This document shows positions 9,867 through 37,839 of a DNA stretch of 64,000 nt, piece by piece. Both the position numbers and the translations under genes were made by a program. The notes below the pieces were generated by a model. The model had not been told where the DNA came from. It ran no database searches and saw only the letters and a program-made list of their open reading frames with translations. This DNA is from Nemertoderma westbladi (lineage: Eukaryota; Animalia; Xenacoelomorpha), in the NCBI GenBank assembly GCA_032718475.1, contig JAUCBJ010008244.1, forward strand, positions 1 through 64,000, in the 5' to 3' direction. Every line of letters starts with the position of its first letter. Position 1 is the stretch's first letter.

Positions 9867-9994
9867 TATAGAATTATATTCCCTAAATGCCGTGGATTTT
9901 CAAAATTTTTATTTTATTCGAATTAACTTTGTAAAAGATTACTTTGAGTCCTCATTTGTATTTGATTTATCATTTGTACGACCTTTAGTCAAGT

Positions 9995-10081
9995 GGTTCA
10001 GTAGCTCAGTCGGTAGAGCGTTGGAAATTATATGTGTAGTAGGTATTGAGTTCGAATCCTAGTAAGCGCGAATTATTTTTT
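9995..10081 (+). ncRNA. tRNA-derived Pol III-type unit in the LTR (second copy 24481-24567); not an intact tRNA
   Basis: A box and D-arm TAGCTCAGTCGGTAGAGC, B box GAGTTCGAATCC, T6 run at 10076-10081; acceptor and anticodon stems do not pair. Confidence 0.6.
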
Positions 10082-10147
10082 GTGCAGAATTTCAACTCAT
10101 TTAAATTGACCGCTACAAATTAAATTGCATTTGTCTGTACCTAGATT

Positions 10148-10424
10148 AACCAATGAGACTGTAGTTATTTGATTGTAACCAATGTCGTGCAAGTTATATA
10201 TTAGCTGGACCAATAGTTATCTTTAAAAACCTGTTAGAACCTATAGAACAATCGAGAATTTTCTCGATTGATTGCAGCACAAATTTGCTATATAAAGGTG
10301 CGATTTGTTCATTAGTTATCAATCTTAATCTATCTCTCTATATTCAATTATTCTGAGTTATCTGATATTTGTTTATTCTGTTATTAGTATTCAGATTACA
10401 TTTTGTATAATTATCTGCAATAAA
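10148..10424 (+). promoter_or_regulatory. Putative LTR Pol II promoter and poly(A) signal
   Basis: Three CCAAT boxes (~10150, 10179, 10210), palindrome 10249-10270, TATATAAA 10289-10296, AATAAA ~10419. Confidence 0.55.
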
Positions 10425-12577
10425 TTCAGAAATACCGCTATCTGCTGTTCTTTCACCATGATTCACTACGGTGAACAAACTTAAGAACAGGATGGCCGGC
10501 TAGAGATCGGGCCGCAGCAATGAACGGGAACATCGGGGGAATGTAGACAAGAGACAACCCGCAATACCATCTCAGTTATTCGCCCATCGCCTGAAAGGTT
10601 AGACAGCGTTCGACGCCTTGCTACCTAAGTGTAAGACCAAAGATCAAAAGGTAGAAGTATTGACACGCTGTGAGCCTAAAATTACATCTTAGGGACTGTA
10701 CTGTCTTGATTCAGGAAAAAACCACAGTAGACCTTCACATTCCTACGGGGGGAGAGCAGGCAGATACTAGTACGCAGATAGGACATAGGCACACCGGTAC
10801 GAAGCATACACATTGGTAGGGTGCAGCAAACTGTACGCCTAACTCTTGCTAAGTACAGGTGCGTTTGCGACTATTTGTGGTACAACGGTGTCCATTGCAT
10901 TAGAACTTGTAGGCTAGGAAGGTTGTTGTGTTTCACCTGAATTGGGATTGTACCGTTCAGGCGGTAGGGCAGTTTACAACTAGGCGCAAATAAATTGAGG
11001 CTATTAGGGATATACTAACATCTACCGTGTCCCCACCAACGTCCTAATAGGAAGTTACCCAGCCTACCTAGGTGACTAAAATTCTAGATAGGAAGCCAGG
11101 ATAGCTATTAGTAACTGTACGCCTACAGTAGTAAACTAACACATTTCTTCTTAGTATTAGGGGCCTGGTAAATTAAAATTGCCGAATTCTGGGCGTAGCA
11201 TTAACCTTATGCCTGAATTTGAGTCCTGGAAATACGCAAGAGGGGAAGGAACCTTATCATTCGTGAGTATTGGACCTACAAGTTACAAAATTAGAATATT
11301 CGTAAAATGCACACCGTACCCAGTAATTATATATGTGAAGGAGCAAAACTGTTTTGACCGTTCAGAATTAACACACGCGCGTTAGAAATTATTTACACCT
11401 CAAAATATATAAAATTAACTTTTGTCCGTACTGTGCTTTGCCCGCTAGTTAGACATCTCCAAATCTCTGCCTCTGTACCTAGCTAGCGTCCCTTCGCCCA
11501 ACCATATAAATCACACCGCGGCAAAGTATACGAGCCCCTTAGTCCGTCAGTGAGTCAGCCTGATTTTAGGATTCGCTGCGCGGGATTTTGTTTTATCGAA
11601 GTTTGTCTGCTCGTAGACTGTTTTCTGCCTCACCGGTTATAAGAGATCGATACTGCAATATATTCGCTTACTTAGAGTTTACTGTTTTGGTGAGAAGGTC
11701 GGATTTATGATTTGATTCACAAACTTTACAGTAAGATATTGCAGGTATTGTTACTGTCTCTTCCATATAGTAGGAATGTGTTTTACTGAACTACGGTTCG
11801 GTAGGACTAAAGTTATTTGAAAATTTTGTATTTTGAGGTAAAAATTTATATTTGATTAGCTAAGTGCTAATTTTTTGAAATAAAATTTGATTTGAACCGC
11901 GTGTAAAATATTTTTGGAATTGAATACCGGTGTTTAAAAGGGTTTAAATACCATATTGTACCGGTACAAAATTTTCGTAAAAGTAAAACCTAACTCTTTT
12001 TTTTTTCAGGATTCAGTTCTCATTTCTAGACTGTAACGGGAGCAAGACCGTGTTTAGCAAGTTTGGGAGATAGATAACTCAACAACTTTGGTTGGGAAAA
12101 TCGCGCTTCGTCCGCAACGCTGAAAACGGAAAGGTTCACGTCCGGTTTGTATCTGGGAATCTGTTTTTCTGGAGAATTATTGGAGTGGGTGAGTTCGAAA
12201 AGTTGCATAAATAAGTTAGGCATTACCGTATTAGTTAAAATTATTGTGGGTTCCACTGTCTCAAGTATTTATGCATTCCGTATGATTTCTTTGTTCATTG
12301 CTGAATTAGTCCGTATTATTGTATTTAATTTACCTTTTGATAACGCATATCGTTATCCGATTTATTTGTTATAAAATTGGCCGCTAGGCTAATTTTATTA
12401 TATACTTATTCCGTGACATTTATTTACTGTAAAATTGGCCGTCTAGGCTAATTTTATCCATCTGCTATAAAATCGGCCGGTAGGCTAATTTTATATGACT
12501 GTAATTAGTACCGTTTAGATAAAATACGGTAAATTTGATACTTTGACACTCACTTTACTTGACTTACAACTACCGAA

Positions 12578-15500
12578 ATGAGTGACAAACAAGACTATAC
12601 GAAGAATACACAAACCGACTATGACTCATGCGACGGAGATAAGTCAGCAGCGGAAGAACAACAGGGGAAGACTCGCGAGCCTACCGAACCTACACCGTGT
12701 GCGTCACCAGTACATCCAACGGGAGTACCGGATGCCGTAGTACGAGGCGACGGCAGGACCGAGGACTTTCTAACTGTTCCGCAACCTAGATACAGGGAAA
12801 CGGACATGGTAAGTTCAGTAGGAAGCCAGGAGAGCGTAGTTAGAAGCGTCGGCGGTTACATGGCGCATATTACCAGGAGTATTGGAGAAGGCCAATGCAT
12901 ATTAGACAAGTTAACTGCTCCGATGTCTCGGTTCGAGTTCTACACTCTACAGGTGAGAGTACAGAGTAAAGTATATAAGTCCGTAGATAACCTAATTGGT
13001 CTACAAGATCTAGCTAGACAGAGACAGGATATGGACACTCAGCTTAGAATCCTCGAGGAACTAATGATCGCTAGAGAGAAACTGATTCAGTTTAAGTCGA
13101 CGATTAGACAGATACAACAGGAACAAGCGGACCAGTTGTTAGGTGAGTCAGTTTCGGACGAATTATTGCAACCCGAGGAAGAACAGGAACTGTACCGACT
13201 GGATGGACAATTGAAACACCTAACGGATCACTTACGCATGTGCGGCGAGGACGTCGGAGATTGGGAAACCGTGCCGGAGGCTACGAGGGAAACTTCGCTC
13301 GCACAAATCGAAACGGCACCGGGAACACTAGATCAATCACTGGTGAGTATTCGCAGCGAAATTGGCGAGGTGAGTATGGCTACGTCAGAAATTGCTCGAC
13401 AACAGCAGATCTACAGACAACAACAGGAGTGGGAGGAACAAACTCAATTACTAATGGCACAAGTAGCAGCAGAAGAAGAGAAACTACGCGTTGCGAATGT
13501 TGCGAGAATCTCTCACCTGCAAGAACAAGCTGAGTTGGAAGTAGCCGAAATGGAAAGGTTAGAGTTGGACATTGCACAACAAGCGGCAGCGGCCGAGTTA
13601 GCGCAACGAACGGCAGCGGCCGAGTTAGAGCGACAAGCGGCAGCGGCCGAGTTAGAGCGACAAGCGGCAGCGGCAGCGGCAGCGGCAGCGTCCGAGTTAG
13701 AGCGACAAAGATTAGCTTCAGAAGCGAGAACCGAAATGAAAAAACGGCAAATAAAGGCTCAATCAGCGATACGACAAGCGGAGTTCGAGGCGCAACAACA
13801 ACAAACGGAACAACGTGAGAAAGAAGTTAAACTTCGTTTCGAACTCGAGAAGAAGGCGAGAGAATTAGCCAACGCCAAGGAAGACCTGGATCTACAAGCC
13901 CGCGATCGATCAATGAGATCTCGAGACGGACATGACTTGGACCAGATAGAGGTAAGACATCGCCAAATTCAGGAACGGAAGAAGGAAGGAAGCGTAGGAG
14001 CACCCGGACGGGAACGACAATTAGTAAAGGACTTGTGTCAACGATTCCCACAGGTAACTCATATGTTTGCACCAGTTACGACTAAGGAACCTGTTTCGAT
14101 TGCGGGTAGTAGTAACATTTCTCCTATCCATGGTGCGGCGGAACACAGGTTTGTTATTCCGGACAAGTTTACACCGCCAAGAGCAACGTCGTCGCCTATT
14201 CCGAAAGTCAAGGTAAGTAACCCACCGACTACCGATCGTAGTAGTTTATTGACCGGACCTGCACTACTAACGACAAAACAGCAGAGTCCACCTTTGACAC
14301 CTAAACCCGTTACGCACTACGAATACCCAATTACGTTTCGGCCTACAAGGCCAGTTGATTCAAAAGCGGTTATTCGACCACCGGTCCAGTTTACATCGCA
14401 ATCTACGACTTCGAGGAAGACTTGTGAGCCTACCGAACAACGGAGACCAGTGGATACGCGACCGTTCAACCAGTTTACATCGCAATCTACGACTTCGAGG
14501 AGGACTTGTGAGCCTACCGAACAACGGAGATCAGTGGACGATGTTCCGAAACGAAACGTGAGAATTCGTACGACGCAACGGACACGAGCACGTCGACCAC
14601 CATATCCAGATGATAGTAGTACTTCGAGCGAATCGGATTACCCGAAACGCGAGGTATTTAGAACAGGGGCGGCCGATGAATATAAACGCGAGCGTTCAGA
14701 TAACTCCTTTGTAGACAATCCTCCACAGAATACACCAACACAGAAGGCGTTACAACCAACGGACGCAATCAGTACACAACAGTTCGCCGACATCCTGCGA
14801 CCAGTTGTTAACAAGTTGGCTCAGATCGAGGAGCGTCTGGAGGAAGTTCAAACCGATAGTTCGAGGAACACTGAATTCGAACACGATAGACACCCGAAGG
14901 AACCACAAAGACCGGTACCTTCAAAACACACATCGTATCAGGGAAAAGCGCCAAGAAGGGATATCAACCAGATTACCAACCAAGGACGCGAAACTCTGAA
15001 CGTTGCCGAGGAAATAGCGAAATTCGCAGCTAGACAAGGATTGCCGGTACAACAACCACCGAAGTTTTCCGGTAGCTCAAAACACTGGCACACATTCGTA
15101 GACTATATCGAATCTCAGATCGCCGTGTGCGCCTTTACATCACGGGAGAAGTTTAATTACCTGCTTCAAACGTTGTCAGGAGAACCTAAACGTTTGGCGG
15201 AGACCTTTGTTGGTGTACCGGACGCTTTCGAACTAGCGTACGATCGTTTAACTTCGATATACGGAGGTACAGTCAGCATGGCCAGGTCAGTGATAGAGGA
15301 ACTCTGTAAGGGAGGGGCTATCACTAAACCCGTCGACTTATTAAAACTGGCTGACGAGATAAAGAATGCTATCACTACTTTGAGATCCATTGGACAACTT
15401 GACTACGGGAATACCCCTACAGTCCTATTAAAGATCATAGGACGACTCCACCATCGACTTCGTCGGGAGTGGAGGAAGATCGAATACCAGCGGGAAGAGC

Positions 15501-18500
15501 GGGGTGGATTCTTAAAACTGGAGGATGTGTACCTTTTGATATCCAGGGAGGCAGTGGTAGAAACTCGATCCAACTACACTGACCAGCACATCGTGGCAGA
15601 AGGAATCACCTTGCCATCCTCAAACCGACAAAAACCCCAGACAACATCCACTAAGACGGCCACTTACGCCACACCGACGGAATCACGACAATTCTCGGAC
15701 GGTAGTAGGGTATCTGCGCCCATTGGGACAAAACAGACGAGACAGCAACTCAGTACCGACTTCAGCGGCTGCCAATACTGCGAGCATTTGGGCAAGCGGT
15801 ATATCGGTCACAAGTTGAGAGGTTGTCGACAGTTTCGCGAGTTAAACTCGGAAGAACGACGGCTGCAGATACGGCCATTGGACTCTTGTTGGCGGTGTAC
15901 GCGACACGGACACGTCCGTAAAGATTGCCCAAATACCGACACTTGTCCATCCTGTGGACGCAACCACGACGGTCTGCTCCACACAGACAGCCACACACCG
16001 ACAAAACGCTTCGCCAGGGAACACCCGGAAGCAGCAGCGAGATGTGATGCGGCCTACAGAAATCGAGAATCGAAAACGACTCCAACCTTTGTGACACATA
16101 TAAAGGATTGCTTCTCAGAACAATCCGGATCGTCGGACGAAGAGTCAGAAGACGACGACGTATATTCTGATGGAGACGAACAACCATCGATCGCGCTTCT
16201 GACGACTGACCAACTAAAGGGATTCAGCGTAATTCCGATCAAGATTACTGGCACAAAGGGGAGCAAGAGAATCTACACTATCCTGGATTCAGCCTCATCT
16301 CACAGCTACGTGGATGAGCAGATAGCTGACGTAGTGACGGATCTCAGACACGGTAAGCGCGTCAGTTACACCGTAAGTAGTATGCACGGACAACGTGCAA
16401 TACCAGTGACACGAGTTAAGTTGGACTTAGACTCTCTTCTTCCAAAATCGCAACACAGCGAGAGGGAGAGGTCTTTGTTACCCTTCAAGGATTTGACTTT
16501 TGCGGCCACCAAAGACTTTAGTAACCTACTAGGTCCGGTCCCAGAACAATCCTTGGAGGACCGTAAGTATTTCAGACACCTTGGTGTACCTGAATGTCCT
16601 GTCAATTATCGATCGGTAGCCATGCTGATCAGGACAGACCAATTCAACCTACATCAAGTGTGGGAAACCAGACCATCGGCAGTCGTGGCGGGAAACGCAT
16701 ACGCCTGCAGAACGCCGATAGGGTGGTATACTCGAGCGCCTGTGCGCACACTGGACATAAGTGACGAGGAAGACGATGTACAAAGTACATGTAGTCTATT
16801 AACTACAAATTCAATTCATTCCTTTTCACACGACATGGACCATACTACCTTACATACAAAACATGACAGACGTGTAACCAGTATGATAAGTCACAAGGAG
16901 CAGCTAATCCACCAGGTGAGTTTAGAACTTGGGGAGAAGACGAGTCAGCTAGAGATTCCATCGACGACAGATGATAACGCCGGAAGGCTTGCGAGTCTAC
17001 CTACCCCAACAACCTCAACAATGCCCATCGATATCGATGATGACGCGTTGAGAAATCATCAATTGGAACAAGCTGTATTGGACAAAGAATTAACGGAGAA
17101 GACTATCAGGTGGTTAGAACAAGATACAGCTGAACCTGGTAGCTACGAACCATGTATGTCGGAACAAGATAAACAATCTTTGAGGATCATGGAAGATACT
17201 ATCCGCCAGACGGAGGACGGACATTATGAGGTAGGGATGTTATGGCGTAGCCAAAATCCTAAACTTATAAATAACTACCCACTGGCTTTAAGACGTCTAC
17301 ACTCAATACGACAACGTCTATTAAAGGACGAGAAAGCCCATCTGCAGTACAACACTCAGATGGAGACGTATTTGACTAAGGGATACGCTATCCGAATGAC
17401 TAACCCAGAGATAGTGACTAACCAGACATACTACCTGCCACATCACTATGTGAGACACCCCGACAAACCAGACAAAGTACGTGTAGTCAATGACTGTGCG
17501 GCTCTGTTTGAGGGAATGTCCCTCAATAGCGAGTTGATGGATGGACCAAACATGAATAATTATCTTATGGGGGTGATTATGCGCTTCCGTCAGCGTCAAG
17601 TAGCCTTTACTTGTGACGTTGAAGCTATGTTTCACCAAGTGAGAGCGTTAGAGCGAGACAGAGACAGTTTGAGGTTCCTCTGGTACCCGGAAGGAGACTT
17701 AAGTCTACCACCGGCGACTTACCAAATGCAAGTTCGCGTTTTCGGTGCCAGGGACAGCCCAAACTGTACGATGTACGCCCTAAAGCAAGCCGCTAGAGAT
17801 CAGAAACACCTGTATGACCCAGAGATAATTAGGATTGTGGAACGTGACTTTTACGTCGACGACGGTTTACAGAGTTGCGACACAGTAGAATGTGCTACAA
17901 CAGTAGCACATCAATTACGGGACTGCTTAGCGGGCGGAGGTTTTAACCTCACCAAATTCGCCTCAAACAGTGCCGAATTAGTAGACTCATTCGGAACGAC
18001 TGAGCGTGGAGGTGGTGACATAGACCTAGAGTTCGAACCACTACCGACGACCAAGGTGTTGGGGCTCTTTTGGGACCCAAACACGGATAACTTTCGAGTG
18101 AAGGTGAGACTGGACAGTCAAGAAAACACACTGACAAAGAGATCATGCTTGTCAAAGTTGAGCCGATTGTTCGATCCATTAGGATTCATCAGTCCAATAA
18201 TACTGCAAGCCCGCATTTATATGCGCAGTATTTGGAAGGATGGACTGACATGGGACGAGCCGATCTCATCAGACCAAGTGGACTTATGGAAGACCTGGGA
18301 GGCAGAATTATCTTCGCTAGAGGATTATTCCATACCCAGAGTCTACTTTCCATTACAAACAACATTTCCTGACAACTTGGAATTACATTGTTTTTCCGAC
18401 GCCAGTGACAACGGTTTTGGTGTGGCAGCGTACTTGCGCAGACAAGTAGACTCAGAAGAATTCGATGTTTCGCTCATTACTTCTAAGGCAAAAACAATGC

Positions 18501-21085
18501 CTACTAAGTACATGACGACACCACGAGCTGAGCTACAAGCCGCAACACTATCAACCACAATTGTGAACCTTATACAGACGGAACTACAGTCAAGTTTACA
18601 GATATTTTATTGGACTGACGCGACGTTGGTTTTATTTTACATAAACAACGACACACTTGAATTCAAGACATTCGTAGCTAACCGTCGCGCAGAAATTCTA
18701 GACCGTTCAATAAAGGAAGATTGGCGACATTGTCCCGGACCACAAAACCCAGCCGATATTGCGTCGCGAGGAATGATGCCTGAGGAATTCTGTAAACCGG
18801 AGAACAAAGAATTTTGGCAACACGGTCCCCAATTCTTGCAGAAATCGACACAAGATTGGCCACCGTTATACGACAACAAGTCTAACACTATCCCTAAGGA
18901 CGCGGAAATCAAGAAACCAAAAAAGGGGAAGGCAAAGAAAAAGACGACGGCGGCAAAACTCAAGAAAAAACCGAAGGCGAAATGGAAAGATATAACTTCA
19001 AAGGTCAAGAGAGGAAGACTTGCGAGCCTTTCTACACCAGACATATCGCCAGACGGTCAACCAGACACGTTACTAGACGGTCAACCAGACATTTTGCCAG
19101 ACATGTCACAAAATGTTCTACCAGACACTAGTAACATACTGACAAATAGTAAAGCCGCAGTTTCCCTATTGGAGCGGCCTTGTATTGACAAACTACCAAT
19201 TTTGACACACTTGAGCAACCATAAGCACGGTGAAACCTCATGTATTACAGATGTGGGTAGTACCTACGCTAATGTAAATACAGGTGTTACTCTGCGCTCA
19301 AGAGACATACCAAACTTGCAACCTATGGTGAGACCTGGGATTAATGTCGGCAGAAAAATAAGTTTACCGAAACCTGCTGACCCCATAGAGTTCAAACCAC
19401 CATTAACGATCGACTTACAAAGTACCGACAATCAAGGTAAGAAGACGAAGAAGGACAAATTACTTGTAGACCCGGACGGATCAACAGTCAACAAGGGAAT
19501 ACTTACCGGCGGACCCGTGGGCCCTTCTAGTAATTCAAAACCTTCCAAATTCTTTGACTTACCTGATGACGTCACAAATACTTACGTCGACCGTATTGTA
19601 AACCTAACAGACTCTTGGTCAAACGCTTGCCGAAAATTAGCGTGGATTGTAAGTTTTGTACAATACGTTAAAGGCAAACGAGACTTTACACGTCGACTTA
19701 CATTGGCTGAGATTGACAGGTGTGAAATTAAATTAATTAGCCATTACCAACTGCGATATTTCGCGATATATCTATAAATCAAGGTCAACCAATCAAGTCG
19801 TCACCAATACTGAGTTGGAGTCCGATTATTTATAATGGCTTAATTTGTCATAAATCTCGGCTTCAAAACATTGACTTTAACACAAATTTTAGATACCCAA
19901 TAATAATACCGCAACACCACGAACTACAACGTGCAATGATACTGGACGCACATTTACATCTGAAACACGCTGGAAGACACCACTGTCTTTCCTACTTACG
20001 TACAAGATTTGTATTAATTAGACCCAGTAAAGCGTTAAGTTCAGTGACACGTACGTGTATTATTTGTAAAAAGGTACATTCTAGAATAGGTACCCAAGAA
20101 ATGAGTGAACTTCCACAAGCACGACTTCAAGCATTCAGACCACCTTTTACAGAGACTGGAATTGATTGCTTTGGTCCCATACATACGAAACGTGGACGTA
20201 TACTAGTAAAACGCTGGGGACTGATTTTCACATGTATGTCCAGTAGGGCAGTTCATATTGAACGTGTGATGGATCTTTCCACCAAAGCGTTTATACTAGC
20301 ATTGCGGCGATTTATCGCTAGACGCGGACTAGTGAAATGCTTGTACTCAGACCAAGGGACAAACTTTGTTGGTGCTCGAAATGAGATTGCTAGAGCCTTT
20401 AAGAAATTAGATCATGATCAAATCTCGAACGAACTACAACCTCACAAGATTGTTTGGAAGTTTAATCCTCCAGATAGTCCTTGGAGAGGCGGAGTCTGGG
20501 AGAGATTGATTAGATCTATAAAGACGGCAATGGCAAAAGTCATTCCAGTAAACCACATATTGACAGACGACCAACTGACAACACTGTTTGTTGAAATCGA
20601 GGCAATACTAAATACTAGACCAATAGTATTAGTACCCGATGACAAACAATCTCAGTTTGCTTTGACACCGGCACACCTGCTTATGCAGGCACCGACCACA
20701 TTGACGCCTATTTCTATTCCAATAGAAAGCGATAGCTACGGTAGAAAAGCGTGGAAAATCACGCAACTACTGGCTAACAAATTCTGGGAAATATGGCAAA
20801 ACCATTTTGCCCTCTATTTCTGCCAGAACAACTTGGTACAATAACACCCGCGCATTAAAGCCGGGAGATCACGTGCTGTTAGCGGAAGTGAATCTAAAAA
20901 GACGCTTCTGGATAACAGGTGTAATTTTAGCCACACATCCATCTATGGATGGAGTGACAAGAACTGTGACGGTACGGACAATTGACGGTCGTACAGTAGA
21001 CAGACCAACTCAACGTCTCGTACTTCTTGAAGAGACTCGTAACGAGTCTGGAGACTACAAATCTCCACCTAATACTAGTAAATAA
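12578..21085 (+). pseudogene. gag-pol: BEL/Pao gag-pol polyprotein with two frameshifts (~19770, ~20810)
   Basis: 2399-aa ORF: Pao-type gag (PKFSGSSKHW), CQYC/CWRC/CPSC knuckles, ILDSAS protease, YLPHH, FYVDD RT, FSDAS RNase H, NPADIASRG; integrase in 19936-20844 (GIDCFGP, SDQGTNF, WERLI) and C-terminus in 20807-21085. Confidence 0.95.
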
Positions 21086-21744
21086 TTAGGAGTTTACAAA
21101 TAGATTTCACGGACCTGTACACCGTAGTAAAGACAGCGGTAGAATTCCATTGTCTTTATATGTGAACATTGAGGGTAGTACCCTTATGTGTCACATAGGA
21201 GCGGGATTTGTAGGTATAAGAAATGGAATTCTACTTGGAACTCACAATATTGAGACATTTTCGAAATTTTAGACAATCCATTTGGATTTGAAAAATTTTT
21301 AAAATTTTCTCCAGTAAATAGATTTCAGGGTACAGTCGGGTGGAACTTAAAATTAGAGAAACAAGAGAGGAAGACTTGCGAGCCTTTCTTAAAATTTTAA
21401 TTAAATTTTACACGGTCTTGTTTCAATAAGTTACGTCAAAATAGACTCCCCTATATTTATTACTAATTCTTGACTGCTTATTTTCTGATAATAGTTTGGG
21501 ATCAAAAGGTGAGTATTTTAGACTCACAGCCAGTTTAGCCCAAATTCGTTTTTATTTCGGCAAAAAATTTTAGATAAGAAGCAGCGTGTCATTAAAGAAA
21601 CCCTAGATCTTAGGCTATGGGTAGGAGGTTAGAGCGTTGTCGAGCCAAAAGGGCAGACGAAAACTCTCACGTCTCCTCACAACTAACTACAACCTCTGTT
21701 GTATTCCCTCTAGTAGTAATGATTATGTAACTACACCTCTAATT

Positions 21745-23343: not shown

Positions 23344-23455
23344 AAGGGAGGGCAAGGGTGGACGGAAGACTCGTGAGCCTTTCTTGTGAATTTGTGATTT
23401 ATTTGAATTATATGTTTTATATTTAATTAGTAAGTTTTGTATTCTGGAAAAAACT

Positions 23456-26839: not shown

Positions 26840-28110
26840 TGTACGCGCTTTTGAAGACCTTTAGCAGTTTAACCTGCCAAAATTTATATGTCTTTTTGGT
26901 TTACAAATAGACTTTAGAAGTTGACAAATATTTAATACCAATAAACACAACATTAGCAGAAGCCAGCCTAGTGCGCGTCCATTCACCCGCTGGATATACC
27001 CGGGGGGCTGGATTCTGAGGGCTTAGATTATTATTGCAGTGTAAGCTTACTGTATTGTATTATTCGATTGATCGTTAATAAATAATTTCTGACTAATATT
27101 ATTTACTTTCGGGAAATATTAACAGTTCCTTTAGGACGTGGCGCTCTATCTAGGTAAACAGAGATATGACTTATACTAATCACAACGGTAAGTCGGTAAG
27201 GCTTATGATTCACGTATGAGGCGCATTCTTTAGGAAATGCTTAGTTATCAGTAACAATCAGGCACACTACCGGTAACACACAATACTGCTCACTAATTTG
27301 CAGACCGTCAATGAATTTTATCATATATAAAGAGAACAGCAACGGACCCATGTAGTGCTTATCAAATAGCATTAAATTCACTACAAACCACAATAATATA
27401 AGTCGCAATCGCTATATATAACCCGTCTCTCTAACCTGTAGTGTATCAAGAAAATTGGGAAATTTGGGTTCTTTATTAATGTTCTCCAAATAATATTCAA
27501 CCAACTAATACAAAATATGACAACAGTAAAACATTAAGACGGTAGGTTAAGATATGATATGACAAGTAATGATATGTGATATATGACATAGACTGGACTG
27601 ATAACAGTTATACGCTCTATAATCTTGAGCCTACTAATGTTTCTTCTAAAGTATGAAAACGAATTGATTCTAGAGCCGGTGTTCCTGGCCTAGATAGAAG
27701 GAACACAACAGTATCACAAAAACAGTAAGACTGAACACTCCTAGTATGATCGGCCGAATATCTCCACATCAACAGAAAAAATCGCTCTGATTGGCTTAAG
27801 CTAAACAAAGAACCATGTGTCCAATGGCCGTTTCCATGTCAGCAACCAGCTGTTAGATGTCGTAATCTGAATCATCAAGGCTAAGCTGTGTAAAGGTATT
27901 TGGTGCATTGCAGGTTTTTTGCCTTACCATGTCCGCCAAAACACGTATATAGAAGAATGACTGTTATGTCCGTTAAAACACCTATAACGGTACCTTGCGG
28001 GCGAGGGGAATATATATATAGTTAGAGAGCCTTTTAGAGTATTCCAGCGCCTGGGGGGAAACTGGATTGCGAAGCAAAAGGGCCAGTTATATCCCACAGA
28101 AGCTTTTACA
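26840..28110 (-). repeat. 3' LTR of element 2 (1271 bp)
   Basis: Near-identical to 36574-37839 (about 5 substitutions and one 5-bp indel). Confidence 0.96.
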
Positions 28111-28188
28111 CCGCTCCCAGAAAATGGGATTTGAGTCTATCAAATATACAAAATCACAGTTTCTAATATACGTAAATACTCTAAACAG

Positions 28189-29638
28189 TTAGTCTTTCTT
28201 GCGCGGACGGCGTTTACGCAGTTTTTTAAAGCTAGCCAGAGTCCTTTTCTCTTTGGGGCGAGCCACTTTACAAGGAGGGCTATAACTCCTGGGTGAAGGG
28301 TGCAATATGATTGCATCAGAGGGTGTAGGATTATGGTCGGTGTATCCGCCAGTCGAAGTACCGGGTTGATTGACATCAACGTCAGGTGAGAGGGGTCTAA
28401 CGGCTTTGAGAGCTCGTTTCAAGACAGCCGCTCTTACGGGTCCTTTACGAGTGGTCTGAACGAGGGCCGTGGGTGGACCATAGGCAGTTAGAAACCTCCG
28501 GGGTTTAATGGTTCTTTCCAACTCGCGTTCGCGGGCTCGGTATTCGTAAGGCCGTCGATATACTTCCTGTAACTCGGGGTGTGAGTTAACAAACAAGTCT
28601 CCATAGTCCGGATCCTGACGGATATAATTGATTAAGTTATAGGAATGAAGGTCGCTAGGATTAACACTCCTGAGAAATTTGCGTACGAATTTGGTTGAAA
28701 TACATTCTCCGACGCGCTTCAGTAGCTCGTAACTTGATATGCGTGATTTCTGTTCAACCGAAGCAAATAGATAAGGATGGAACGCATAAACTCCTTCGTA
28801 AGCGCGTCCGGGATAATAGCGATGGCGCGAATCACAATGTAAATCAGCGTTCGCTTCCCAAGCTCTGATGTAACGTAGTGTGATCATTTCATCTACGCTT
28901 TCCAAATCGTGATTAAAAGGGCAGTCGAAACTGGCATGTCCCTTTAGTTGACAATGGTGACATTGAGTCATAAATTGAGGGCAAACCGCAAAGATATGCA
29001 AGTTATTGAGTCTGCAATATGCGCAATAAATTTCCATAGTCGGTTGTTCTTGGAAATAGGAACAGCGGACGTTGGTGTCCATGGGCGTATCGTGGTCTCT
29101 CGATGCGCATAACCGACAACGTTGCCGAGAAACATAGTTGGCATGGCGATAATTGTACGCAGTGAGACACTGTGGACCTTGATACCATTCTAGGATGTAA
29201 TCGTTGTCGCTGTTCCGGGGCGCGATAGGCTGAATCTCCTCAGATTCTAGGCATATTGGTTCGTCTTCCCAGTCTGTTACGAATAGAATTTTCGTGATCT
29301 ATTCTCGGTTTACCGTTACGACTCCGCTGGGTATGATATTTAAATAGAACCATTTCCCTTTCGGTGTCTACATCGTCCGTATCATGTAAATCGATAGGAT
29401 GGCCGGTCGTTAAGAAGTCCATATACGTACCATTACGATTCGTATAGCGAGTGGTGAATTTTCGATAGTCCAATTCACGCGCAAGTTGCTCTTGGGACAT
29501 CGGCGGTTCGATATAACGACCATCGTCCTCCGTAATGGTTGGATCGGCTTCACCGCGTATTAAGCTATCCACAAATGCTTGTAAAGGTAGAGTATATCGC
29601 TCCCTAATACCAAGATCATCTTCTATCAACTCCGTCAT
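28189..29638 (-). CDS. Accessory 3' zinc-knuckle gene of element 2 (two overlapping frames, switch near 29240-29300)
   Basis: The 297-aa ORF frame stays open upstream of its Met to ~29298 and adds CRLCASRDH; then CAYCRLNNLHIFAVC and CHHCQLKGHASFDC; ends KKLRKRRPRKKD. Confidence 0.8.
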
Positions 29639-31268
29639 ATCTGCTATCTGAGTTTATTAATATCAAATAAGTTTATATTTAGGCGAGCGGGCGTCGCTGC
29701 CTACTTCTCTTTGCCCCCGGACAGTGGGATTCTCAGCGCCGATGTACCATTGTCGCGGTGTTTACGCCAACATGTAGCAACAGCACGACAACGATAACCG
29801 GCACAAGTCACTCCACTGTCCATCCCAAAGGCTTGAATCCACTTTAGGTTCTTTCTATAGGAGAGTTGGGTTACTTTCACAATTGCGACTAGCTACTGTA
29901 AACATACTTTAGCAGTAACATTCACCTATAAACGCACAAATTCCACACAACTGTCACCAATTGTACACATACAGGCCATTTGTCTGTTAGTCAGTGCCTT
30001 CCAGAATGTCACGTTATTACTGTGTATCCTTGGATACTAACAGTGTGCTATGTATTCTCTATGCTATGCAATGGGACAAGCTTTCTATTGTTCTTTTAAC
30101 TTGCTTCTAATTCTAGCGTGGGTGTTGCTATGGTGACATTATGGAAAGCTAGCGGTAGAATTAGAGTAATTCTCATGCATACAGATCTGGAATGCTATTT
30201 AATAGTAATTCTTTAATTGTCAATATCCTCTTTATACATGATTTTATTAATTTTATCGGCTATTGACTATATGTTGGAGATTCTCGCACTCTAATACACT
30301 CAATAGGATGAATCTCCGCTCCCATGATCTATTAATTAATGGAATTTTGGGAATGTTATAAATTGCACAAAATGACAATTTATGAAATTCATTTAAAATA
30401 TGAATTTAAATTTATTCCCGTGAATTTTATTATTTGATGTTAAAATTGACACAATTTGATTCCAGAGCAGGTCTGGGAACATAGGATCCTTAATTCTATG
30501 AAAATTGTCTTTTAAGAGTATCGGTAAGTGCTGCGATATCTTAATTGACTAGAAATTTTAAAGGATCTGAATTTTACAGATTTTAATAAATATTAAATTA
30601 ATATTTAAGATGGGCACCGATTTATTCCAGAACTTGTCTGGGGACGTTAACCACTGATTCTAGAATTGGTCTTTCAAGTATATCGGTGGGTGCCGCGATA
30701 TCTTAATCGACTAGAATTACAGATGGTCAAAAGGTTTAACAGATTTATTTGCGTTTTACGCTACTGTTAGAGGGACATCACGCTACTATATGTATTATTA
30801 TATATGGTATGAGAGCAATATCGCACGAAGCAATGTCAGTGTGAAGAGGCAAGTCGTTTCCAAGGTCTACCCAGAGCTTGGTTTAGCCCAGACACGAGGA
30901 TCTGAACTTTGCATTCCTAATACTCTGCCTACCAATAATACTTGAATATAGTAGTGGCTTTATTGTACTTTAATAAGTACGGACATTTCATCTTACTGTA
31001 GTCACGTATTTATAATATGATACGGACAGTAAGGAAAGAGAAAAATAATTATTTCTTGCCGTCGCACTAAATATATATTATAAGTAATTACGTACGTAAT
31101 AAACACTATAAATATATTGCACTAATCTACTAAATAATCACTAAAATAACATTCTACTAAATAAAATTAAAGAAAACGATTATAATAAAATTACATAATA
31201 ATACATACATAAATATAAAATAAAAACAAATATAAAATGATATAGTCACACGCCCACTCCATATATTA

Positions 31269-34200
31269 TTACGTTATGGAGTCCCTAGATATTTGTCGGA
31301 TTAGGGAAGTGGTCGTAGGAAGAGTATCTTGCCTTCCATAGTTTCCGGACAGTTTTCGGTCTCTTTCCAGTAAACATAAACGACCAGCTGGGCGATTGAG
31401 TTGTTGTGTTACTTTCTCCGCTCCCTTGGCCTGTCTAATCTCCGTAGTGGTAAGATGAGGAGGCCATTCTTCTTCTTCTTTACTTAAGAAGTCGGATCCA
31501 CCTAACCAGCCTGGATTATCTATCAGTTCTTGAGGAGTTGCTCCTCTGGAAGCGATGTCGGCTGGATTAATCGTCCCAAGGCAATGTCTCCATTGATCTA
31601 CATTGGAGTTAATATCGTCATTATCTGAGGAGTATGGTGTTCCCTCAGTTGGATCGTCCACATTACTGCTCTCCACTTCCCATTCCTTTACTTGGTATAC
31701 CTGTTGTTGAGGTAATCTCTCTTTGAGAGTTCTACGGGAAGGGCCAGTGAAGTACCAACCTACTCTAGTTCTTACCGCATAGGTTTGTAGTGGCTGCGGT
31801 TGAGCAGGCCGTTTCTCCAATGTCTCGAGCGCCTCATGCGCGTTTTGGCCGATGAGTATTTGCACTCCAGGATAATCTGTCTGGAATCGAGGTATCTTAA
31901 GCCTTGCACCTACATAGTAATCTGCCGTTATGGTAGATTTCCAAACCTGCATAATTCCGGACATATTCAACTTAGTTCGGAATTTGGGTTGTCCAGCAAA
32001 GATGTCTTCGGCTAGTTCTTGATCGATGAATGTTCCTGTGCTGCCGGAGTCAAGGAGGGCGTTCACTATGTAACTTTTGTTAGGACCGTGAACTCTTACC
32101 TGCACTACAGGAAATTCTCTGATTCCTATGTTGGAAGTTGGAGCTTTCCAAGATGGTTGTCTGTCAAAGGTAGTTGGGGGGAACTCATTGTCGGTGTCAT
32201 TTTCATACGTAAGTGCTCGATACACTGCGGTATTTATTAGGTAACAGGATTCGTTGGCGTCGGAGAATTCGTCCGTATAGAATCCTTCCATCTCAGACTC
32301 TTGATCAGTGTCATTTACATCACTGAATTGGACATGTAGTTCGGGTTCACTTACCTGACTCGGGTTGTTTCGTTCGAATTCACTGCGTAACAAGATGTGA
32401 TGTTTCGCACCGCACTTTGCACACTTTACTTCGGAGTAACAGGTTCGCCGTTGGTGTCCTGGTCTGAGGCAATGATAGCATAACCGCTTATCCCACATGA
32501 CTTCACGTCTGTCTACCGGGGATTTCTTTAGGAATTCAGCACACACACTCAAACGGTGGGGCCCGTCGCACAGCGCACATTTTGGTTTGATGTTACTCAC
32601 TTTACCTTGGGTAACGTTATGCACTCTCGTTCTTTCTTCGGGCTTTCTTCCGTGAATTCTCTTAGGAGACGTAGGAGGAGTTGTTGTTACCTGTTCTCTC
32701 CGGTCACTGGTTCGAGACTTATATTTACTTACGTCTTTATAGGTCTTGTTGTCATAGTAGGATTTTGCTGTGTCTTTCCCGCTGTCCTCTTCCTGAGAGA
32801 CTTGGCTTTCGCCGTCGTCAGTATAACACACTGGTGTTACCCTTCTCCTAGAAACGGGTTTCTCACTTACCTTATTTTCCGATGTTTTCTCTCTGGACTG
32901 CTTTATGAGTTGTAATTTTACTTCACTATCTAAGAAGGACATGAGATCAGCCATGGTAGGGTCTCGTTGTTGTTGTTCCATCATATATAACACTTTCTTG
33001 TCCCAGCGTGTACCTACTCCACCCTTTGGTAAAGTAGATGCTAAGGCTCCTACAACCATAGAGTTCTGGTATTCATGAGACTCACCTAACCAATCTAGCT
33101 GTCTACAGATCTCCTGAATTTCATCGGAAAATTCTATAATCCCGCTGCTAAGAAACTTTCGGGGCGCCATTAATTTCGCATATAAATACCTAGCTATGTT
33201 AGTCCTATTACCATACCTGATGTTTAATGTATCCCAAACTTGTCTTAATCCATCTGGATGTCCAATAAATTTTAACGCCATTAACTTGGGAGGTCCTTCC
33301 AAGCATTCGATGAGGTATCTGAGTTTCTCTCCGTTAGATAGCACAGAATTCTGTATGTTATCTTTGTAATATTCATTAAAAGGTAACCATTTCATCTCAT
33401 CTCCATTGAACTTGACGATCTCTCCAACCTTTACCGCTTGACGGGCTTCGGTTCTAGCCATTTGACGCGTAAAACTTTCTTGAGCCATCGTATTATTGAA
33501 TATAGAATTATCGGTATATAAATTTCTCGGATTATGATCAGGTCTATATGGAATATTATTATCAACAGGTTTATAATCACCCTGAATAGGGTTTACTATA
33601 GGAGTTTCTACTTCACTAGCAGTATAGATGCGTGTAGGCTCCACACCTTGCGCATGAGATACTTCAGACCTAACGGGTTGACACATTGTTACAGGGGGTG
33701 GTGGTATACCCTTTTGTAAATTGACTAATTTATCGCGTTCTAACGCGATACTTTGCTGCACCTTTTGCAACTCTAACCTACTTTCCCTTACTGTTCCCTT
33801 GAGCTGCTGAACAGTCTCTTCCATTTCCCGGACCTGCTGAGAGGAGCACAAACAGTGTTCCCTCAGCTGCTCGAGCAGGAGACCCATCTCCCGTCGTCCC
33901 TCAGCTACCCACTCAACCGCCGAAGCGGGAGTCGCCAACGTAGTAGCGGGCGAGCGAGAGACGACGGGCGATAAATTCTTGATATCTCGCTCGGCGTCCA
34001 GGACGGGTTCGGACTCGGGAACAGTCCTACTGGGCACAGGTAGTTTAGTACTGTACAAAGGGAATTTATAGGCAGGTTCTGGGAGTACAGGTGTCTCTAT
34101 CTTTCTTTCCGCTTCTACTGTTGCCATTGCCTCTGCCGCCTTTCTTTCCGCTTCTGCTGTTGCCATTGTCTCTGCCGCCTTTCTTTCCGCTTCTGCTGTT

Positions 34201-34343
34201 GCCATTGCCTCTGCCGCCTTTCTTTCCGCTTCTGCTGTTGCCATTGCCTCTGCCATCTTCCTTTCAAGACCCTGTCCAAGTCTAAGACTCATTCTAACAC
34301 CTTCCAAAAGACTATCTGACAGTGCCCGTTTTGTGTCAGACAT
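31269..34343 (-). CDS. gag: BEL/Pao Gag-protease fused in frame to the end of the RNase H region; RT and integrase absent
   Basis: KFNGDEMKW, CALC/CYHC/CAKC knuckles, LLDSGS, then directly WRHCLGTINPADIASRG; 13-aa AEAMATAEAERKA repeats at the N-terminus. Confidence 0.9.
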   Translation of the reverse strand: MSDTKRALSDSLLEGVRMSLRLGQGLERKMAEAMATAEAERKAAEAMATAEAERKAAETMATAEAERKAAEAMATVEAERKIETPVLPEPAYKFPLYSTKLPVPSRTVPESEPVLDAERDIKNLSPVVSRSPATTLATPASAVEWVAEGRREMGLLLEQLREHCLCSSQQVREMEETVQQLKGTVRESRLELQKVQQSIALERDKLVNLQKGIPPPPVTMCQPVRSEVSHAQGVEPTRIYTASEVETPIVNPIQGDYKPVDNNIPYRPDHNPRNLYTDNSIFNNTMAQESFTRQMARTEARQAVKVGEIVKFNGDEMKWLPFNEYYKDNIQNSVLSNGEKLRYLIECLEGPPKLMALKFIGHPDGLRQVWDTLNIRYGNRTNIARYLYAKLMAPRKFLSSGIIEFSDEIQEICRQLDWLGESHEYQNSMVVGALASTLPKGGVGTRWDKKVLYMMEQQQRDPTMADLMSFLDSEVKLQLIKQSREKTSENKVSEKPVSRRRVTPVCYTDDGESQVSQEEDSGKDTAKSYYDNKTYKDVSKYKSRTSDRREQVTTTPPTSPKRIHGRKPEERTRVHNVTQGKVSNIKPKCALCDGPHRLSVCAEFLKKSPVDRREVMWDKRLCYHCLRPGHQRRTCYSEVKCAKCGAKHHILLRSEFERNNPSQVSEPELHVQFSDVNDTDQESEMEGFYTDEFSDANESCYLINTAVYRALTYENDTDNEFPPTTFDRQPSWKAPTSNIGIREFPVVQVRVHGPNKSYIVNALLDSGSTGTFIDQELAEDIFAGQPKFRTKLNMSGIMQVWKSTITADYYVGARLKIPRFQTDYPGVQILIGQNAHEALETLEKRPAQPQPLQTYAVRTRVGWYFTGPSRRTLKERLPQQQVYQVKEWEVESSNVDDPTEGTPYSSDNDDINSNVDQWRHCLGTINPADIASRGATPQELIDNPGWLGGSDFLSKEEEEWPPHLTTTEIRQAKGAEKVTQQLNRPAGRLCLLERDRKLSGNYGRQDTLPTTTSLIRQISRDSIT

Positions 34344-35684
34344 GTTTGATTGTACAGTTGAATGCCTACTGCTATATTACAGTTAAAGCAAGTCTAGTAA
34401 TTCAGTATCACTGTTAGCCTAATAATTAATTACCGATACTGCTACTCAGTGTAGCGTGATATATATATAATATATTAGAATACCGGTATTATTACAGACT
34501 AGATTTGTCACAGAGTACCGGTATATAAATTTAGCACAAATATATATAAATATATAATAGGCCTATCGTGAATACCGGTATGCAGCTTACACTTATAGTA
34601 TATAAGTATAATTCTGGACTAGAATTAATTACAGAGTACCGGTATGATTTCAGCCTAAATTTATAGAATAAATATAATAAGCCTATTGTAAATACCGGTC
34701 GTCAATTATTTTAAAATAATTGAATTTCTGAATGTTAGGGGTTACTTGGTTACTTTACTTACTTTATTACCGTTATTTGAGCAGCAGTCCAACTGATATT
34801 AAGACCTAAGTGTTGTATAACAGGTCAACTATTTTATTAATAGATTTAGTGGATTTATATGTACCCGTATGAGGGGTTTTGTTACAATATTGAAATAGAT
34901 GTTACTATTTCTGGGAAGTAATCACTACACAAAAGCTGTGCGCTCTCAGTGAAGTGCTACTTATTAGACACTAAAACAGATAATTCTACTTCCTAAGTTA
35001 CTTATCTACAAATTACTTACGATACGGGTGAGATTAATTCTCTAACTAAACACAACAAAAATATTACGTACGAAATTTTAGGGTAATTTTACAGGAAGTC
35101 TACAAACCAGCCTAACAAAGGGTTAGAATTCTGGTTATTACAAACGGACAGGATACTACGGTATTTGAAAATAATAAGTAGTAGTAAATACACTGTGTTG
35201 TCCAGATAGGAAAATACCACCGCCTGACGACCTATAACCGTATCGCTATAGGTACTACGTTATGTATCACGGAGTGTCCCTACCTAGAAGTTAATTACCG
35301 CGGTCTACCAGAACCAACGTGCCTATTAACCACTTTACAACACAAATATACTGCCTACACACTAATTACCTTCGGAAAGCACTGTACACTAAACCCTAAA
35401 TTAGGTACAAGTACTGGTACAACAAATAATCAGTAGTTAAAAATACTTGAACAGCTAAAAGAACCACGGCATCTGCTGGAGTGACCGGTGCACAAAATCA
35501 CCAGTCTTTACCTACGCCAAGCAGCCCGTGTAGTACCGGGGTTAATTTAACTATAACGGTATATATAACAAGCACAATTACTGTAGGAATAAACTTGGGG
35601 ACATGAATGTTGCGAATAATCGCATAAACTCTGAATAATAAATATTACGCTACCCGTACAGAATACTCAAACAAAATACAAACC

Positions 35685-36170
35685 AAACGCTGGCAGACTA
35701 CCACCAAGCCTAAATAAACTACCGTATGTGTAGATTCCGAAATGGTTAGTTAGTATGCGTTCTAACACGGTAGTACGACTTATTCTTTAAGAGGGGATTG
35801 ACCTTACAGCTATGGCTGCCCCAACTTACTAACTGGCACTTTATCAGACAAACTCTACACACGCAGCAATCTCTTCAGACCTAATAATAGCTAGACAACA
35901 ATCCAGCCTACAAAATATCTGAGTAATAACTATTACGGTACCTGAACAGACCACACAAACAAACACAGGCCAAAACGTTGGCAGAATACCGTCAAGCCTA
36001 AATAAACTACAGTATGTGCAGATTCCAAAATGGTTAGTTAGTATGCGTTCTAACACGGTAGTACGACTTATTCTTTAAGAGGGGATTGACCTTACAGCTA
36101 TGGCTGCCCCAACTTACTAACTGGCACTCTATCAGACAAACTCTACACACGCAGTAATCTCTCCAAACCC
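35685..36170. repeat. ~288-bp tandem duplication in the leader of element 2
   Basis: GGTTAGTTAGTATGCGTTCTAACACGG...CAGACAAACTCTACACACGCAG occurs twice, ~288 bp apart. Confidence 0.85.
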
Positions 36171-36573
36171 AACAACAATCCGACAACAGTCCGGCCTACA
36201 ATTATCTGAACAATCTGAGCAGACTTACACGTCTTCAGCTCAATATTAACTTACATGTAAATAAAACCGACAGAAATAAGTAAAATCTCAATAAAAAACC
36301 AGGGCGGCCGTCCCTGATTAAATACTAAGACCTACCAGTATACTATAATCAAAATCGAATAATACTAATGTACTTATACTGGAAGTACCGGTTAGGACAG
36401 TTGGGCCTACGGACCTACAGAAGTACCGGTTCTGGCAGTTGGACCTACGGACCTACAGCAGTACCGGTTCTGGCAGTTGGGCCTACTGACCTACAGAAGT
36501 ACCGGTTCAGGTTTACCGATCGACCGGTACTTTCAACTTTATTGCTTACTGCAATAAAGACAATAACTGTTAT

Positions 36574-37839
36574 TGTACGCGCTTTTGAAGACCTTTAGCA
36601 GTTTAACCTGCCAAAATTTATATGTCTTTTTGGTTTACAAATAGACTTTAGAAGTTGACAAATATACCAATAAACACAACATTAGCAGAAGCCAGCCTAG
36701 TGCGCGTCCATTCACCCGCTGGATATACCCGGGGGGCTGGATTCTGAGGGCTTAGATTATTATTGCAGTGTAAGCTTACTGTATTGTATTATTCGATTGA
36801 TCGTTAATAAATAATTTCTGACTAATATTATTTACTTTCGGGAAATATTAACAGTTCCTTTAGGACGTGGCGCTCTATCTAGGTAAACAGAGATATGACT
36901 TATACTAATCACAACGGTAAGTCGGTAAGGCTTATGATTCACGTATGAGGCGCATTCTTTAGGAAATGCTTAGTTATCAGTCACAATCAGGCACACTACC
37001 GGTAACACACAATACTGCTCACTAATTTGCAGACCGTCAATGAATTTTATCATATATAAAGAGAACAGCAACGGACCCATGTAGTGCTTATCAAATAGCA
37101 TTAAATTCACTACAAACCACAATAATATAAGTCGCAATCGCTATATATAACCCGTCTCTCTAACCTGTAGTGTATCAAGAAAATTGGGAAATTTGGGTTC
37201 TTTATAAATGTTCTCCAAATAATATTCAACCAACTAATACAAAATATGACAACAGTAAAACATTAAGACGGTAGGTTAAGATATGATATGACAAGTAATG
37301 ATATGTGATATATGACATAGACTGGACTGATAACAGTTATACGCTCTATAATCTTGAGCCTACTAATGTTTCTTCTAAAGTATGAAAACGAATTGATTCT
37401 AGAGCCGGTGTTCCTGGCCTAGATAGAAGGAACACAACAGTATCACAAAAACAGTAAAACTGAACACTCCTAGTATGATCGGCCGAATATCTCCACATCG
37501 ACAGAAAAAATCGCTCTGATTGGCTTAAGCTAAACAAAGAACCATGTGTCCAATGGCCGTTTCCATGTCAGCAACCAGCTGTTAGATGTCGTAATCTGAA
37601 TCATCAAGGCTAAGCTGTGTAAAGGTATTTGGTGCATTGCAGGTTTTTTGCCTTACCATGTCCGCCAAAACACGTATATAGAAGAATGACTGTTATGTCC
37701 GTTAAAACACCTATAACGGTACCTTGCGGGCGAGGGGAATATATATATAGTTAGAGAGCCTTTTAGAGTATTCCAGCGCCTGGGGGGAAACTGGATTGCG
37801 AAGCAAAAGGGCCAGTTATATCCCACAGAACCTTTTACA
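36574..37839 (-). repeat. 5' LTR of element 2 (1266 bp)
   Basis: Near-identical to 26840-28110. Confidence 0.96.

Follow-up and report, generated by a model that had tools for sequence, protein, structure and literature searches.

Predicted tRNA-free self-priming and a candidate spliced zinc-knuckle regulator in two BEL/Pao elements of Nemertoderma westbladi

How might a retrotransposon without a tRNA primer site begin reverse transcription, and what could an extra zinc-knuckle gene behind its polymerase contribute? The question is raised by two BEL/Pao elements in a 64,000-nt stretch of the Nemertoderma westbladi genome (assembly GCA_032718475.1, contig JAUCBJ010008244.1, positions 1 to 64,000; hereafter the window), namely E1 on the plus strand (9867-26255) and E2 on the minus strand (37839-26840). 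An earlier note, made from the letters alone, had taken them for a "complex" lineage with a regulatory layer like that of complex retroviruses. The features noted there largely hold up and exceed chance by a wide margin. The reading we favour, at a probability of about 0.5, combines self-priming without tRNA and a spliced zinc-knuckle regulator of unspliced RNA. From sequence comparison, these traits are two layers of different age, an old self-priming shared across the clade and a lineage-specific accessory layer, since the primer complement is clade-wide and the extra gene is absent in relatives. Each layer has precedent in another group of long terminal repeat (LTR) elements.

No TGG was present after the 5' LTR of either element, as the earlier note had observed in describing the lack of a TGG-type primer-binding site (PBS). 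In both E1 and E2, the LTR is followed by exactly 11 nt that are perfectly complementary to a segment of the element's own LTR, and the LTR-internal complements that the note had pointed out were thus recovered. In E1, the non-tRNA PBS at 11770-11780 (plus strand) pairs with a predicted 11-nt self-primer at 10736-10746 (plus strand; copy in the 3' LTR at 25222-25232), which was also the best duplex partner in the LTR for post-LTR nucleotides 1-14. The corresponding sites of E2, both on the minus strand, are the non-tRNA PBS at 36563-36573 and an 11-nt complement, the predicted self-primer, at 37330-37340. Dinucleotide shuffles reached at least 11 nt in 7 of 20,000 trials for E1 and 30 of 20,000 for E2, and an 11-mer complement anywhere in the LTR was found for 9 of 12,572 internal positions in E1 and 6 of 8,457 in E2. 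Both complements fall within the published rule for self-primers, a complement of at least 10 bp lying 0-5 bp from the LTR (PMC6317226), and the primer helix of Tf1 likewise measures 11 nt (PMC7175516).

A self-encoded tRNA primer was considered and rejected. The E1 LTR contains a degenerate tRNA-like segment with A-box and B-box (10002-10062, plus strand; Rfam tRNA 12.2 bits, E 6.6, below threshold), which is no tRNA gene (ARAGORN reported 0 tRNA genes), has no counterpart in E2 and is surpassed by other LTR sequence as a partner for the PBS. The segment is possibly a captured head of a short interspersed nuclear element or an RNA polymerase III element. An Rfam scan over 9000-40000 gave one match only, by chance. 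The pairing of E1 post-LTR nucleotides 13-45 with LTR positions 9984-10004 (-24.2 kcal/mol) was not counted, the next sites reaching -22.4 and -20.9 kcal/mol.

The same relation between LTR and PBS was found across relatives. A reverse transcriptase (RT) profile recovered 99 of them, 80 metagenome loci and 19 from genome bins. We inspected the 35 loci with a repeat flanking the RT and tested the 16 with a usable LTR 3' end (L035 and L091, with unclear LTR ends, were excluded), and together with E1 and E2 these 18 elements were judged by one rule. A complement of at least 10 nt was present in 14 of the 18, against 2 of 300 non-cognate pairs. It was contiguous in six elements (L010, L045, L050, L063, E1 and E2) and existed only across a GT-AG junction in eight (L007, L018, L038, L061, L072, L082, L083 and L094), with the intron donor lying 155-381 nt into the LTR. 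The helix began 0-4 nt from the LTR end. Among the misses, L017 is tRNA-type, carries the sole TGG among the 16 loci and lies outside the self-priming clade; its TGG-type PBS was seen 5 nt past the LTR (L017:56-80). The complement of L036 appeared once the acceptor threshold was relaxed from 0.6 to 0.55, L089 has a 10/11 complement with one mismatch in both LTRs, and the LTR end of L098 had been placed too early, its junction being the same as in its sister L018. Between L082 and L083, three changes are compensated between primer and PBS, which is not what a fixed tRNA would yield.

These counts should be read with the make-up of the sets in mind. The donor pattern was devised after the sequences had been viewed and was applied equally to the controls. 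Several positive loci are sisters, so the independent families are fewer, about 11 spliced ones as judged by the tree. A second set of 12 loci, which contains three re-tests and L035, gave 9 positives, a partly circular figure because the LTR end was taken as the best of 7-20 candidates. tRNA-free primer sites complementary to the LTR also occurred in relatives with short LTRs and no extra gene. Since PBS loss and the complement are common to most relatives, they do not single out the E1/E2 pair, and the expectation of the earlier note that its traits would co-occur in one clade failed for priming, which is found clade-wide without the extra gene or long LTRs.

The clade is likely Sinbad/Sailor, by its RT motif and a tree without reference elements. 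In a FastTree phylogeny of 206 RT-RNase H sequences, with no reference Sinbad elements among the tips, E1 grouped with L023 and two tunicate sequences (support 0.98) on a long branch, inside a 149-tip clade (0.857) containing all 20 complement-bearing elements in the tree. The assignment was made because all six published families with the clade RT motif that were looked up, of 30 shown, are Sinbad (PMC3118150 S6, S4); E1 itself deviates from the motif at one residue. The RT relatives with a named source reached about 42% identity to it and came mostly from marine invertebrates and fish, and an RT scan of viral contigs returned 0 loci. In a gag-core tree of 31 sequences, E1 and E2 were sisters (support 0.93).

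The second layer is the extra gene. The 3' frames of E1 and E2 are homologous, as the earlier note had recognised (48/176 residues identical, 27%, E 3e-19); the homology reaches about 100 residues past the knuckles, and each protein has three CCHC-type knuckles and a basic tail. In E1, the open reading frame (ORF) spans 22126-23343 (plus strand; 405 aa, or 403 aa from the ATG at 22132) and includes the three knuckles, the shared domain and the basic tail. The E2 frame, with its three knuckles and basic tail, spans 28189-29298 (minus strand; 369 aa stop to stop), and its first ATG lies inside knuckle 1, so that a further splice or frameshift would be needed. A 78-aa ORF of E1 (21745-21981, plus strand) is the first long ORF past the splice acceptor and shares the frame of the knuckle ORF. 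E2 has a 132-aa acidic ORF (29240-29638, minus strand) that overlaps its knuckle frame and showed no similarity to the E1 upstream piece in the tested pair. In both elements an AG stands two bases ahead of a conserved Trp codon, where a further intron might link an upstream ORF with the knuckle exon.

The earlier note had proposed collecting relatives by means of the accessory protein, and no homologue was found in the databases or the 99 loci. There were 0 homologues among 5183 candidates and 0 among 4131 longer candidates, and none in metagenome or viral contigs. A comparison with 1.84 billion representatives gave 4 matches, all generic knuckle proteins or spurious, and the 99 relative loci gave E 0.03 or worse, attributable to Gag knuckles or noise. 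Atlas matches were all under 0.9, and the best PDB match had E 0.046. No glycoprotein family matched the extra product and no envelope gene was found. Neither Rev nor CERV, two regulators of unspliced RNA discussed below, was among the search matches, no direct pairwise comparison having been made. The AlphaFold single-sequence model of the protein had a pLDDT of 36.8 and was unusable.

The extra gene was absent in 23 of the 23 relatives with a measurable gap between integrase and polypurine tract (PPT); in these, the PPT lay 110-439 nt past the integrase end, with no ORF longer than 64 aa between. E1 has an internal GGAGCGG at 21198-21204 (plus strand), 113 nt past the integrase end, which is the spacing of the terminal PPT in relatives (0.009 expected by composition). 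In E2, an internal GGAGCGG at 30316-30322 (minus strand) lies between the pol remnant, about 950 nt past it, and the accessory gene (0.015 expected). From these internal tracts, it seems that the accessory module was added behind the place once occupied by the PPT, and that this old site may now serve as an internal plus-strand start. The terminal tracts at 24346-24352 in E1 (plus strand) and 28111-28117 in E2 (minus strand) are also GGAGCGG and stand directly before the 3' LTR, so the earlier note was right that the two share it. Relatives carry a G-rich tract that also contains C (GGGGCCGG, GGGGAGCCA); GGAGCGG seems to be a variant of it and was rejected as a lineage marker.

Two contig joints in run X4 suggest that the E1 accessory gene is read from a doubly spliced mRNA. 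The joint 10597>12010 delimits intron 1 (10598-12009, plus strand, GT..AG), which holds the primer segment and the PBS. The joint 12188>21714 delimits intron 2 (12189-21713, plus strand, GT..AG), whose 9.5 kb include gag-pol, and between the two lies exon 2 of 179 nt (12010-12188, plus strand). Both joints fall at consensus splice sites, and among the joints listed (15 of 47) neither appears in X1, X3 or X5. The two land on canonical sites and bound a 179-nt exon, which speaks for their being real. The predicted mRNA would start at about 10312, behind a candidate TATA box found by motif scan (10289-10295, plus strand). Lacking primer, PBS and gag-pol, it could not be copied. We consider a real spliced accessory gene highly probable. 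X4 contigs were deeper over the first LTR bins and the 3' gene, but this was not used, because contig depth cannot rank parts.

E1 further contains a family of eleven 20-nt hairpins with a YGYG loop (12666-24057, plus strand), absent from the list of features in the earlier note, which ranges from the gag start to the 3' untranslated region (UTR). Seven copies start in intron 2 (12666, 14415, 14499, 16982, 19013, 19508 and 21369) and four in exon 3 (21934, 23364, 23842 and 24038), all on the plus strand. They occupy different reading frames, and 11 sense copies stand against one antisense hairpin. A 17-nt pattern had 15 matches where 0.05 were expected. The strict hairpin pattern gave 0 matches elsewhere in the window, 0 in the 713 kb of the 99 loci and 0 in 2000 shuffles; it had been composed after the copies were seen. 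In the stem, 87% of cells pair, and the closing pair is U-A, C-G, G-C or U-G. Two pairs change on both sides, and the covariation score was matched by 2 of 500 shuffles. A repeated 16-mer family of more than four copies was seen in one of 22 relatives scanned (L082, at a locus including repeated flank). On this pattern, the hairpins are a candidate binding element in E1. A basic low-complexity stretch of more than 200 aa between RNase H and integrase (about 18900-19600) holds two hairpins, and the 3' UTR contains a 17-nt tandem array (23457-23729).

Self-priming of E1 and E2 by their own LTR RNA is probable in our judgement. The LTR segment would pair with the first 11 post-LTR nucleotides, a pairing seen in the sequence, and an RNase H cut at the segment's 3' end would follow, by analogy with Tf1. 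From there, copying would cross LTR sequence of about 1020 nt in E1 and 756 nt in E2 and then jump to the 3' LTR. The genomic RNA would end 3' of the primer segment, in E1 at the distal AATAAA (10989-10994, plus strand, 242 nt 3' of the segment), whose copy in the 3' LTR is the predicted end signal, and the cut would leave a short repeat for strand transfer. Of 14 relatives, 11 had a poly(A) signal beyond the primer segment and 1 had it before the segment, which indicates that the segment lies inside the terminal repeat region R. In many of them the primer would exist only once the LTR intron is spliced, and would lie within R and not at the cap. For all of the LTR upstream of the cut, the intron among it, the 3' LTR would be the template, and a needed intron could be inherited in this way. 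Loss of the intron would leave a contiguous primer as in E1 and E2.

The accessory layer would act on the RNA so primed. The genomic RNA of E1 would have to retain the 9.5-kb intron and read through the proximal AATAAA upstream of the primer segment (10419-10424, plus strand), a problem of the kind that Rev and CERV solve. The accessory protein, likely made from a doubly spliced mRNA, would bind RNA of the element and permit production or export of its unspliced genomic form, and the 11 hairpins of E1 would be its candidate binding sites. We put a role in the export or processing of unspliced RNA at slightly less than an even chance, and offer the hairpins as the target of the protein tentatively. 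The full "complex" lineage, in which tRNA-free priming, its primer often built by host splicing, is clade-wide and a Rev-like spliced knuckle protein reads hairpins throughout gag-pol to license unspliced, read-through genomic RNA, seems rather unlikely. Of the earlier label, the homologous gene, the apparent double splicing in E1, the absence of the gene from all 23 relatives, the sister gag sequences and the E1 hairpins hold up; the priming is not specific to the lineage.

Several observations weigh against the combined reading. Each X4 joint is represented by one contig, with a shorter side of 22 nt (intron 1) or 29 nt (intron 2), and X4 is a public run labelled 'DNA?', not on record as RNA. 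Upstream ORFs lie before the knuckle frame in both elements and pose a problem of ribosome access. E2 has no hairpin copy and no clear dispersed motif above shuffles; its pol is deleted, yet its gag and 3' end are present and still hairpin-free, and the absence weakens the tie between hairpin and shared protein. Of 10 distinct hairpin copies, 9 have a non-standard A-C at one paired position where the tenth has G-U, and the motif is near-palindromic, so that a DNA site would fit too. The sister placement of E1 and E2 comes from the gag core; among the matches of E2, E1 ranks 81st by knuckle, 18th by protease and 9th by RNase H tail. Folding gave the E1 primer helix a pair probability of about 1 if the RNA starts at the segment and of 0 from the upstream start, and the E2 helix a probability of at most 0.21.

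Because folding favours the helix only from the segment start, a second transcription start is a strong variant for E1 and E2. In such a plain Tf1 geometry, the RNA would begin at the 11-nt segment, the primer would be its capped 5' end, and the upstream promoter would serve the accessory mRNA only. The E1 segment starts in a context, TTCACATT, that we take to be initiator-like, which we counted on this side together with the E1 helix being predicted only for RNA starting there. Both helices are exactly 11 nt, like that of Tf1 (PMC7175516), and priming of Tf2 is controlled by alternative start sites (PMC5341516). However, neither LTR has a TATA box about 30 nt upstream of the segment, and the primer spans an intron in 8 of 14 positives, which argues for an internal position there. 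This variant, which we regard as a serious possibility short of likely, would alter the priming step alone and is compatible with the rest of the combined reading.

For the accessory protein, a role as nucleocapsid-like chaperone or packaging helper, with the hairpins as packaging signals recognised by this protein or by Gag and no part in export or splicing, is unlikely but deserves attention. CCHC knuckles are the RNA-binding module of nucleocapsids, the database matches were only generic knuckle proteins, a chaperone could be needed for a long-range primer helix unable to form by itself, and 7 of the 11 hairpins are limited to unspliced RNA. However, Gag has knuckles of its own, 4 of the 11 hairpins are also within the spliced mRNA, and relatives self-prime without the extra gene. 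A DNA-level activator or anti-silencing factor, with the near-palindromic repeats as DNA sites, would accord with the partial match of the motif to the minus strand and with the basic, NLS-like (nuclear localisation signal) tails on both proteins. We consider it improbable, given the loop orientation of 11 sense copies to one antisense, the alternation of G-U and G-C at paired positions, and an LTR promoter that holds no motif copy. Least probable of all is that the pairing between LTR and PBS has a purely structural or regulatory part, an unrecognised host tRNA fragment or small RNA being the primer: half-tRNA priming occurs in other LTR groups (PMC6317226), but the PBSs vary freely by family yet follow their own LTR or junction, with compensation, and the helix starts 0-4 nt from the LTR end, where the primer 3' end must sit.

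The anatomy of both elements agrees with the earlier identification as BEL/Pao, through LTR pairs found by self-comparison, short target-site duplications (TSDs), a PPT and Pfam domains. The E1 5' LTR (9867-11769, plus strand, 1903 nt, TATA...TATA) follows the TSD ACTAC (9862-9866), and the 3' LTR (24353-26255, plus strand) is followed by ACTAC again; the pair has 8 mismatches in 1903 nt. A gag-protease (PR)-RT-RNase H (RH) ORF of about 2400 aa (12578-19777, plus strand) includes zinc knuckles of its own in gag, and the integrase (IN; 19741-21085, plus strand) is spread in this copy over two further frames (19741-20844 and 20726-21085). Pfam matches were Peptidase_A17 (E 2e-42), DUF1759 and DUF5641, and the domain order is PR-RT-RH-IN. 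The E1 RT is BEL/Pao and not that of a Ty3/gypsy chromovirus, which places the element outside the Tf1/sushi group. E2, with TSD CTAGG, has a 5' LTR of 1266 nt (36574-37839, minus strand, TGTA...TACA) and a 3' LTR of 1271 nt (26840-28110, minus strand), which differ by 5 mismatches and 5 gap positions. Its gag-protease (Pfam DUF1759 and protease) is fused to an RNase H tail found by tblastn (31269-34343, minus strand), and RT, most of RNase H and integrase are missing. Judged from these remains, E2 is a deletion derivative without RT and integrase. The TG...CA rule for LTR ends fits E2, and E1 has TATA...TATA at both LTRs. Each pair is about 0.4% divergent, and on that divergence both insertions are young.

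The LTRs of the two elements were unalignable (best blastn E 0.085), in agreement with the dissimilarity the earlier note had seen by eye. They are long, at 1.3-1.9 kb, as it had stressed, yet unexceptional, because Sinbad LTRs reach a maximum of 2,110 nt (median 657; PMC3118150 S9); we rejected their length as a lineage marker, since it lies inside the published BEL/Pao range. Repeats of 1.2-1.7 kb were also noted in relatives (L093:1561-3189, a possible long LTR; L091 and L046:2806-4492, internal duplications or nesting). The E2 leader of 2.2 kb contains a 288-nt duplication and 38-nt repeats (35630-36214; 36382-36508).

E1 sits inside the RT gene of a long interspersed nuclear element (LINE; Pfam RVT_1), whose split gene was seen at 9193-9873 (minus strand) and from 26261. 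Run X5 has the uninterrupted flank, and the E1 PPT-LTR junction as a loose end. The number of contigs on E1 (21,025 in run X1 and 9,144 in X3) indicates that it belongs to a variable multi-copy family. One X1 contig links 10483 (LTR position 617) back to the LTR start at 9867. Elsewhere in the window lie satellite arrays (389-5330, 46-nt unit x107; 5944-9010, 32-nt unit x96) and three tandem copies, 95-96.5% identical, of a repeat unit measuring about 1.48 kb (59529-64000), an array that runs past the window end. A Gypsy-type element at 51801-56644 has 208-nt LTRs (96.6%), a DUF7041 gag and a 1075-aa pol frame. LINE-like remnants with RT, endonuclease-like and PHD-finger ORFs occur at 41867-45890 (minus), 47681-51026 (plus) and 40985-41638 (minus), and a 575-nt repeat is present at 38440-39014 and 50743-51317.

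For BEL/Pao, the full-text literature searched described neither self-priming nor primers built by splicing, and no accessory gene with zinc knuckles; the search did not extend to Repbase, GyDB or the majority of subscription papers, where notes on such primer sites may exist. The comparison drew on PMC3601003, PMC3118150, PMC554778, PMC6238403, PMC8220671, PMC8556966, PMC5443660 and PMC3286476, and "priming" and "tRNA" were absent from the searched passages of three Sinbad/Sailor clade papers. If a major marine BEL/Pao clade does prime without tRNA, "missing PBS" annotations would be explained, tRNA-fragment defences against the PBS would miss such elements, and replication would depend on host splicing where the primer is splice-assembled. 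A spliced RNA-binding accessory gene with its own dispersed response element would add a case, beside CERV, in which complex regulation like that of retroviruses arose independently. The hairpin is short and well defined, which makes the idea of a protein-hairpin contact directly testable in vitro.

In HIV and other complex retroviruses, accessory proteins such as Rev are made from multiply spliced mRNA, and structured cis elements such as the Rev response element lie in the retained intron. E1 differs in having many small dispersed hairpins, not one large element, and zinc knuckles in place of the arginine-rich helix of Rev, and no envelope gene was found. Closer in anatomy is CERV of the C. 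elegans Gypsy/Ty3 element Cer1, which comes from a spliced mRNA, is needed for export of unspliced RNA and has a candidate NLS and a putative zinc finger rich in cysteine (PMC10309623, where Rev is also described). CERV, with a putative C4 finger, has exons in common with Gag, whereas E1 and E2 have a separate 3' gene with three CCHC knuckles; the likeness is one of anatomy, and a regulator role in E1 and E2 is predicted. Extra ORFs in or after the gag-pol unit, as in E1 and E2, are known from env-like BEL/Pao elements (roo, and mosquito BEL with a Chuviridae-like glycoprotein; PMC13524379) and as the plant eORF-3'F (PMC6317226). Unlike the env-like products, that of E1 and E2 has zinc knuckles and a basic tail.

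For priming, the self-primed LTR elements are Tf1, Tf2 and Tj1, the Tf1/sushi group, and plant Tcn1 and TAR, and the RNase H cut after base 11 has been shown for Tf1 (PMC7175516, PMC6317226, PMC4600332). E1 and E2 resemble them in having no tRNA site and an 11-nt LTR segment complementary to the PBS. Those systems are Gypsy or Copia, whereas E1 and E2 are BEL/Pao. In Tf1 the RNA begins with the 11-nt primer, whereas the predicted primer of E1 and E2 lies deep in the LTR; unlike in Tf1, the E1 primer is downstream of the splice donor seen in X4 and that of relatives is split by an intron. Sinbad/Sailor agrees in domain order, Pfam families, RT motif class, LTR size range and mainly marine hosts among the named relatives, and the two elements stand apart from it by a 3.1-kb module with the extra gene behind a PPT-like tract, by the long branch and by the TA...TA ends of E1.

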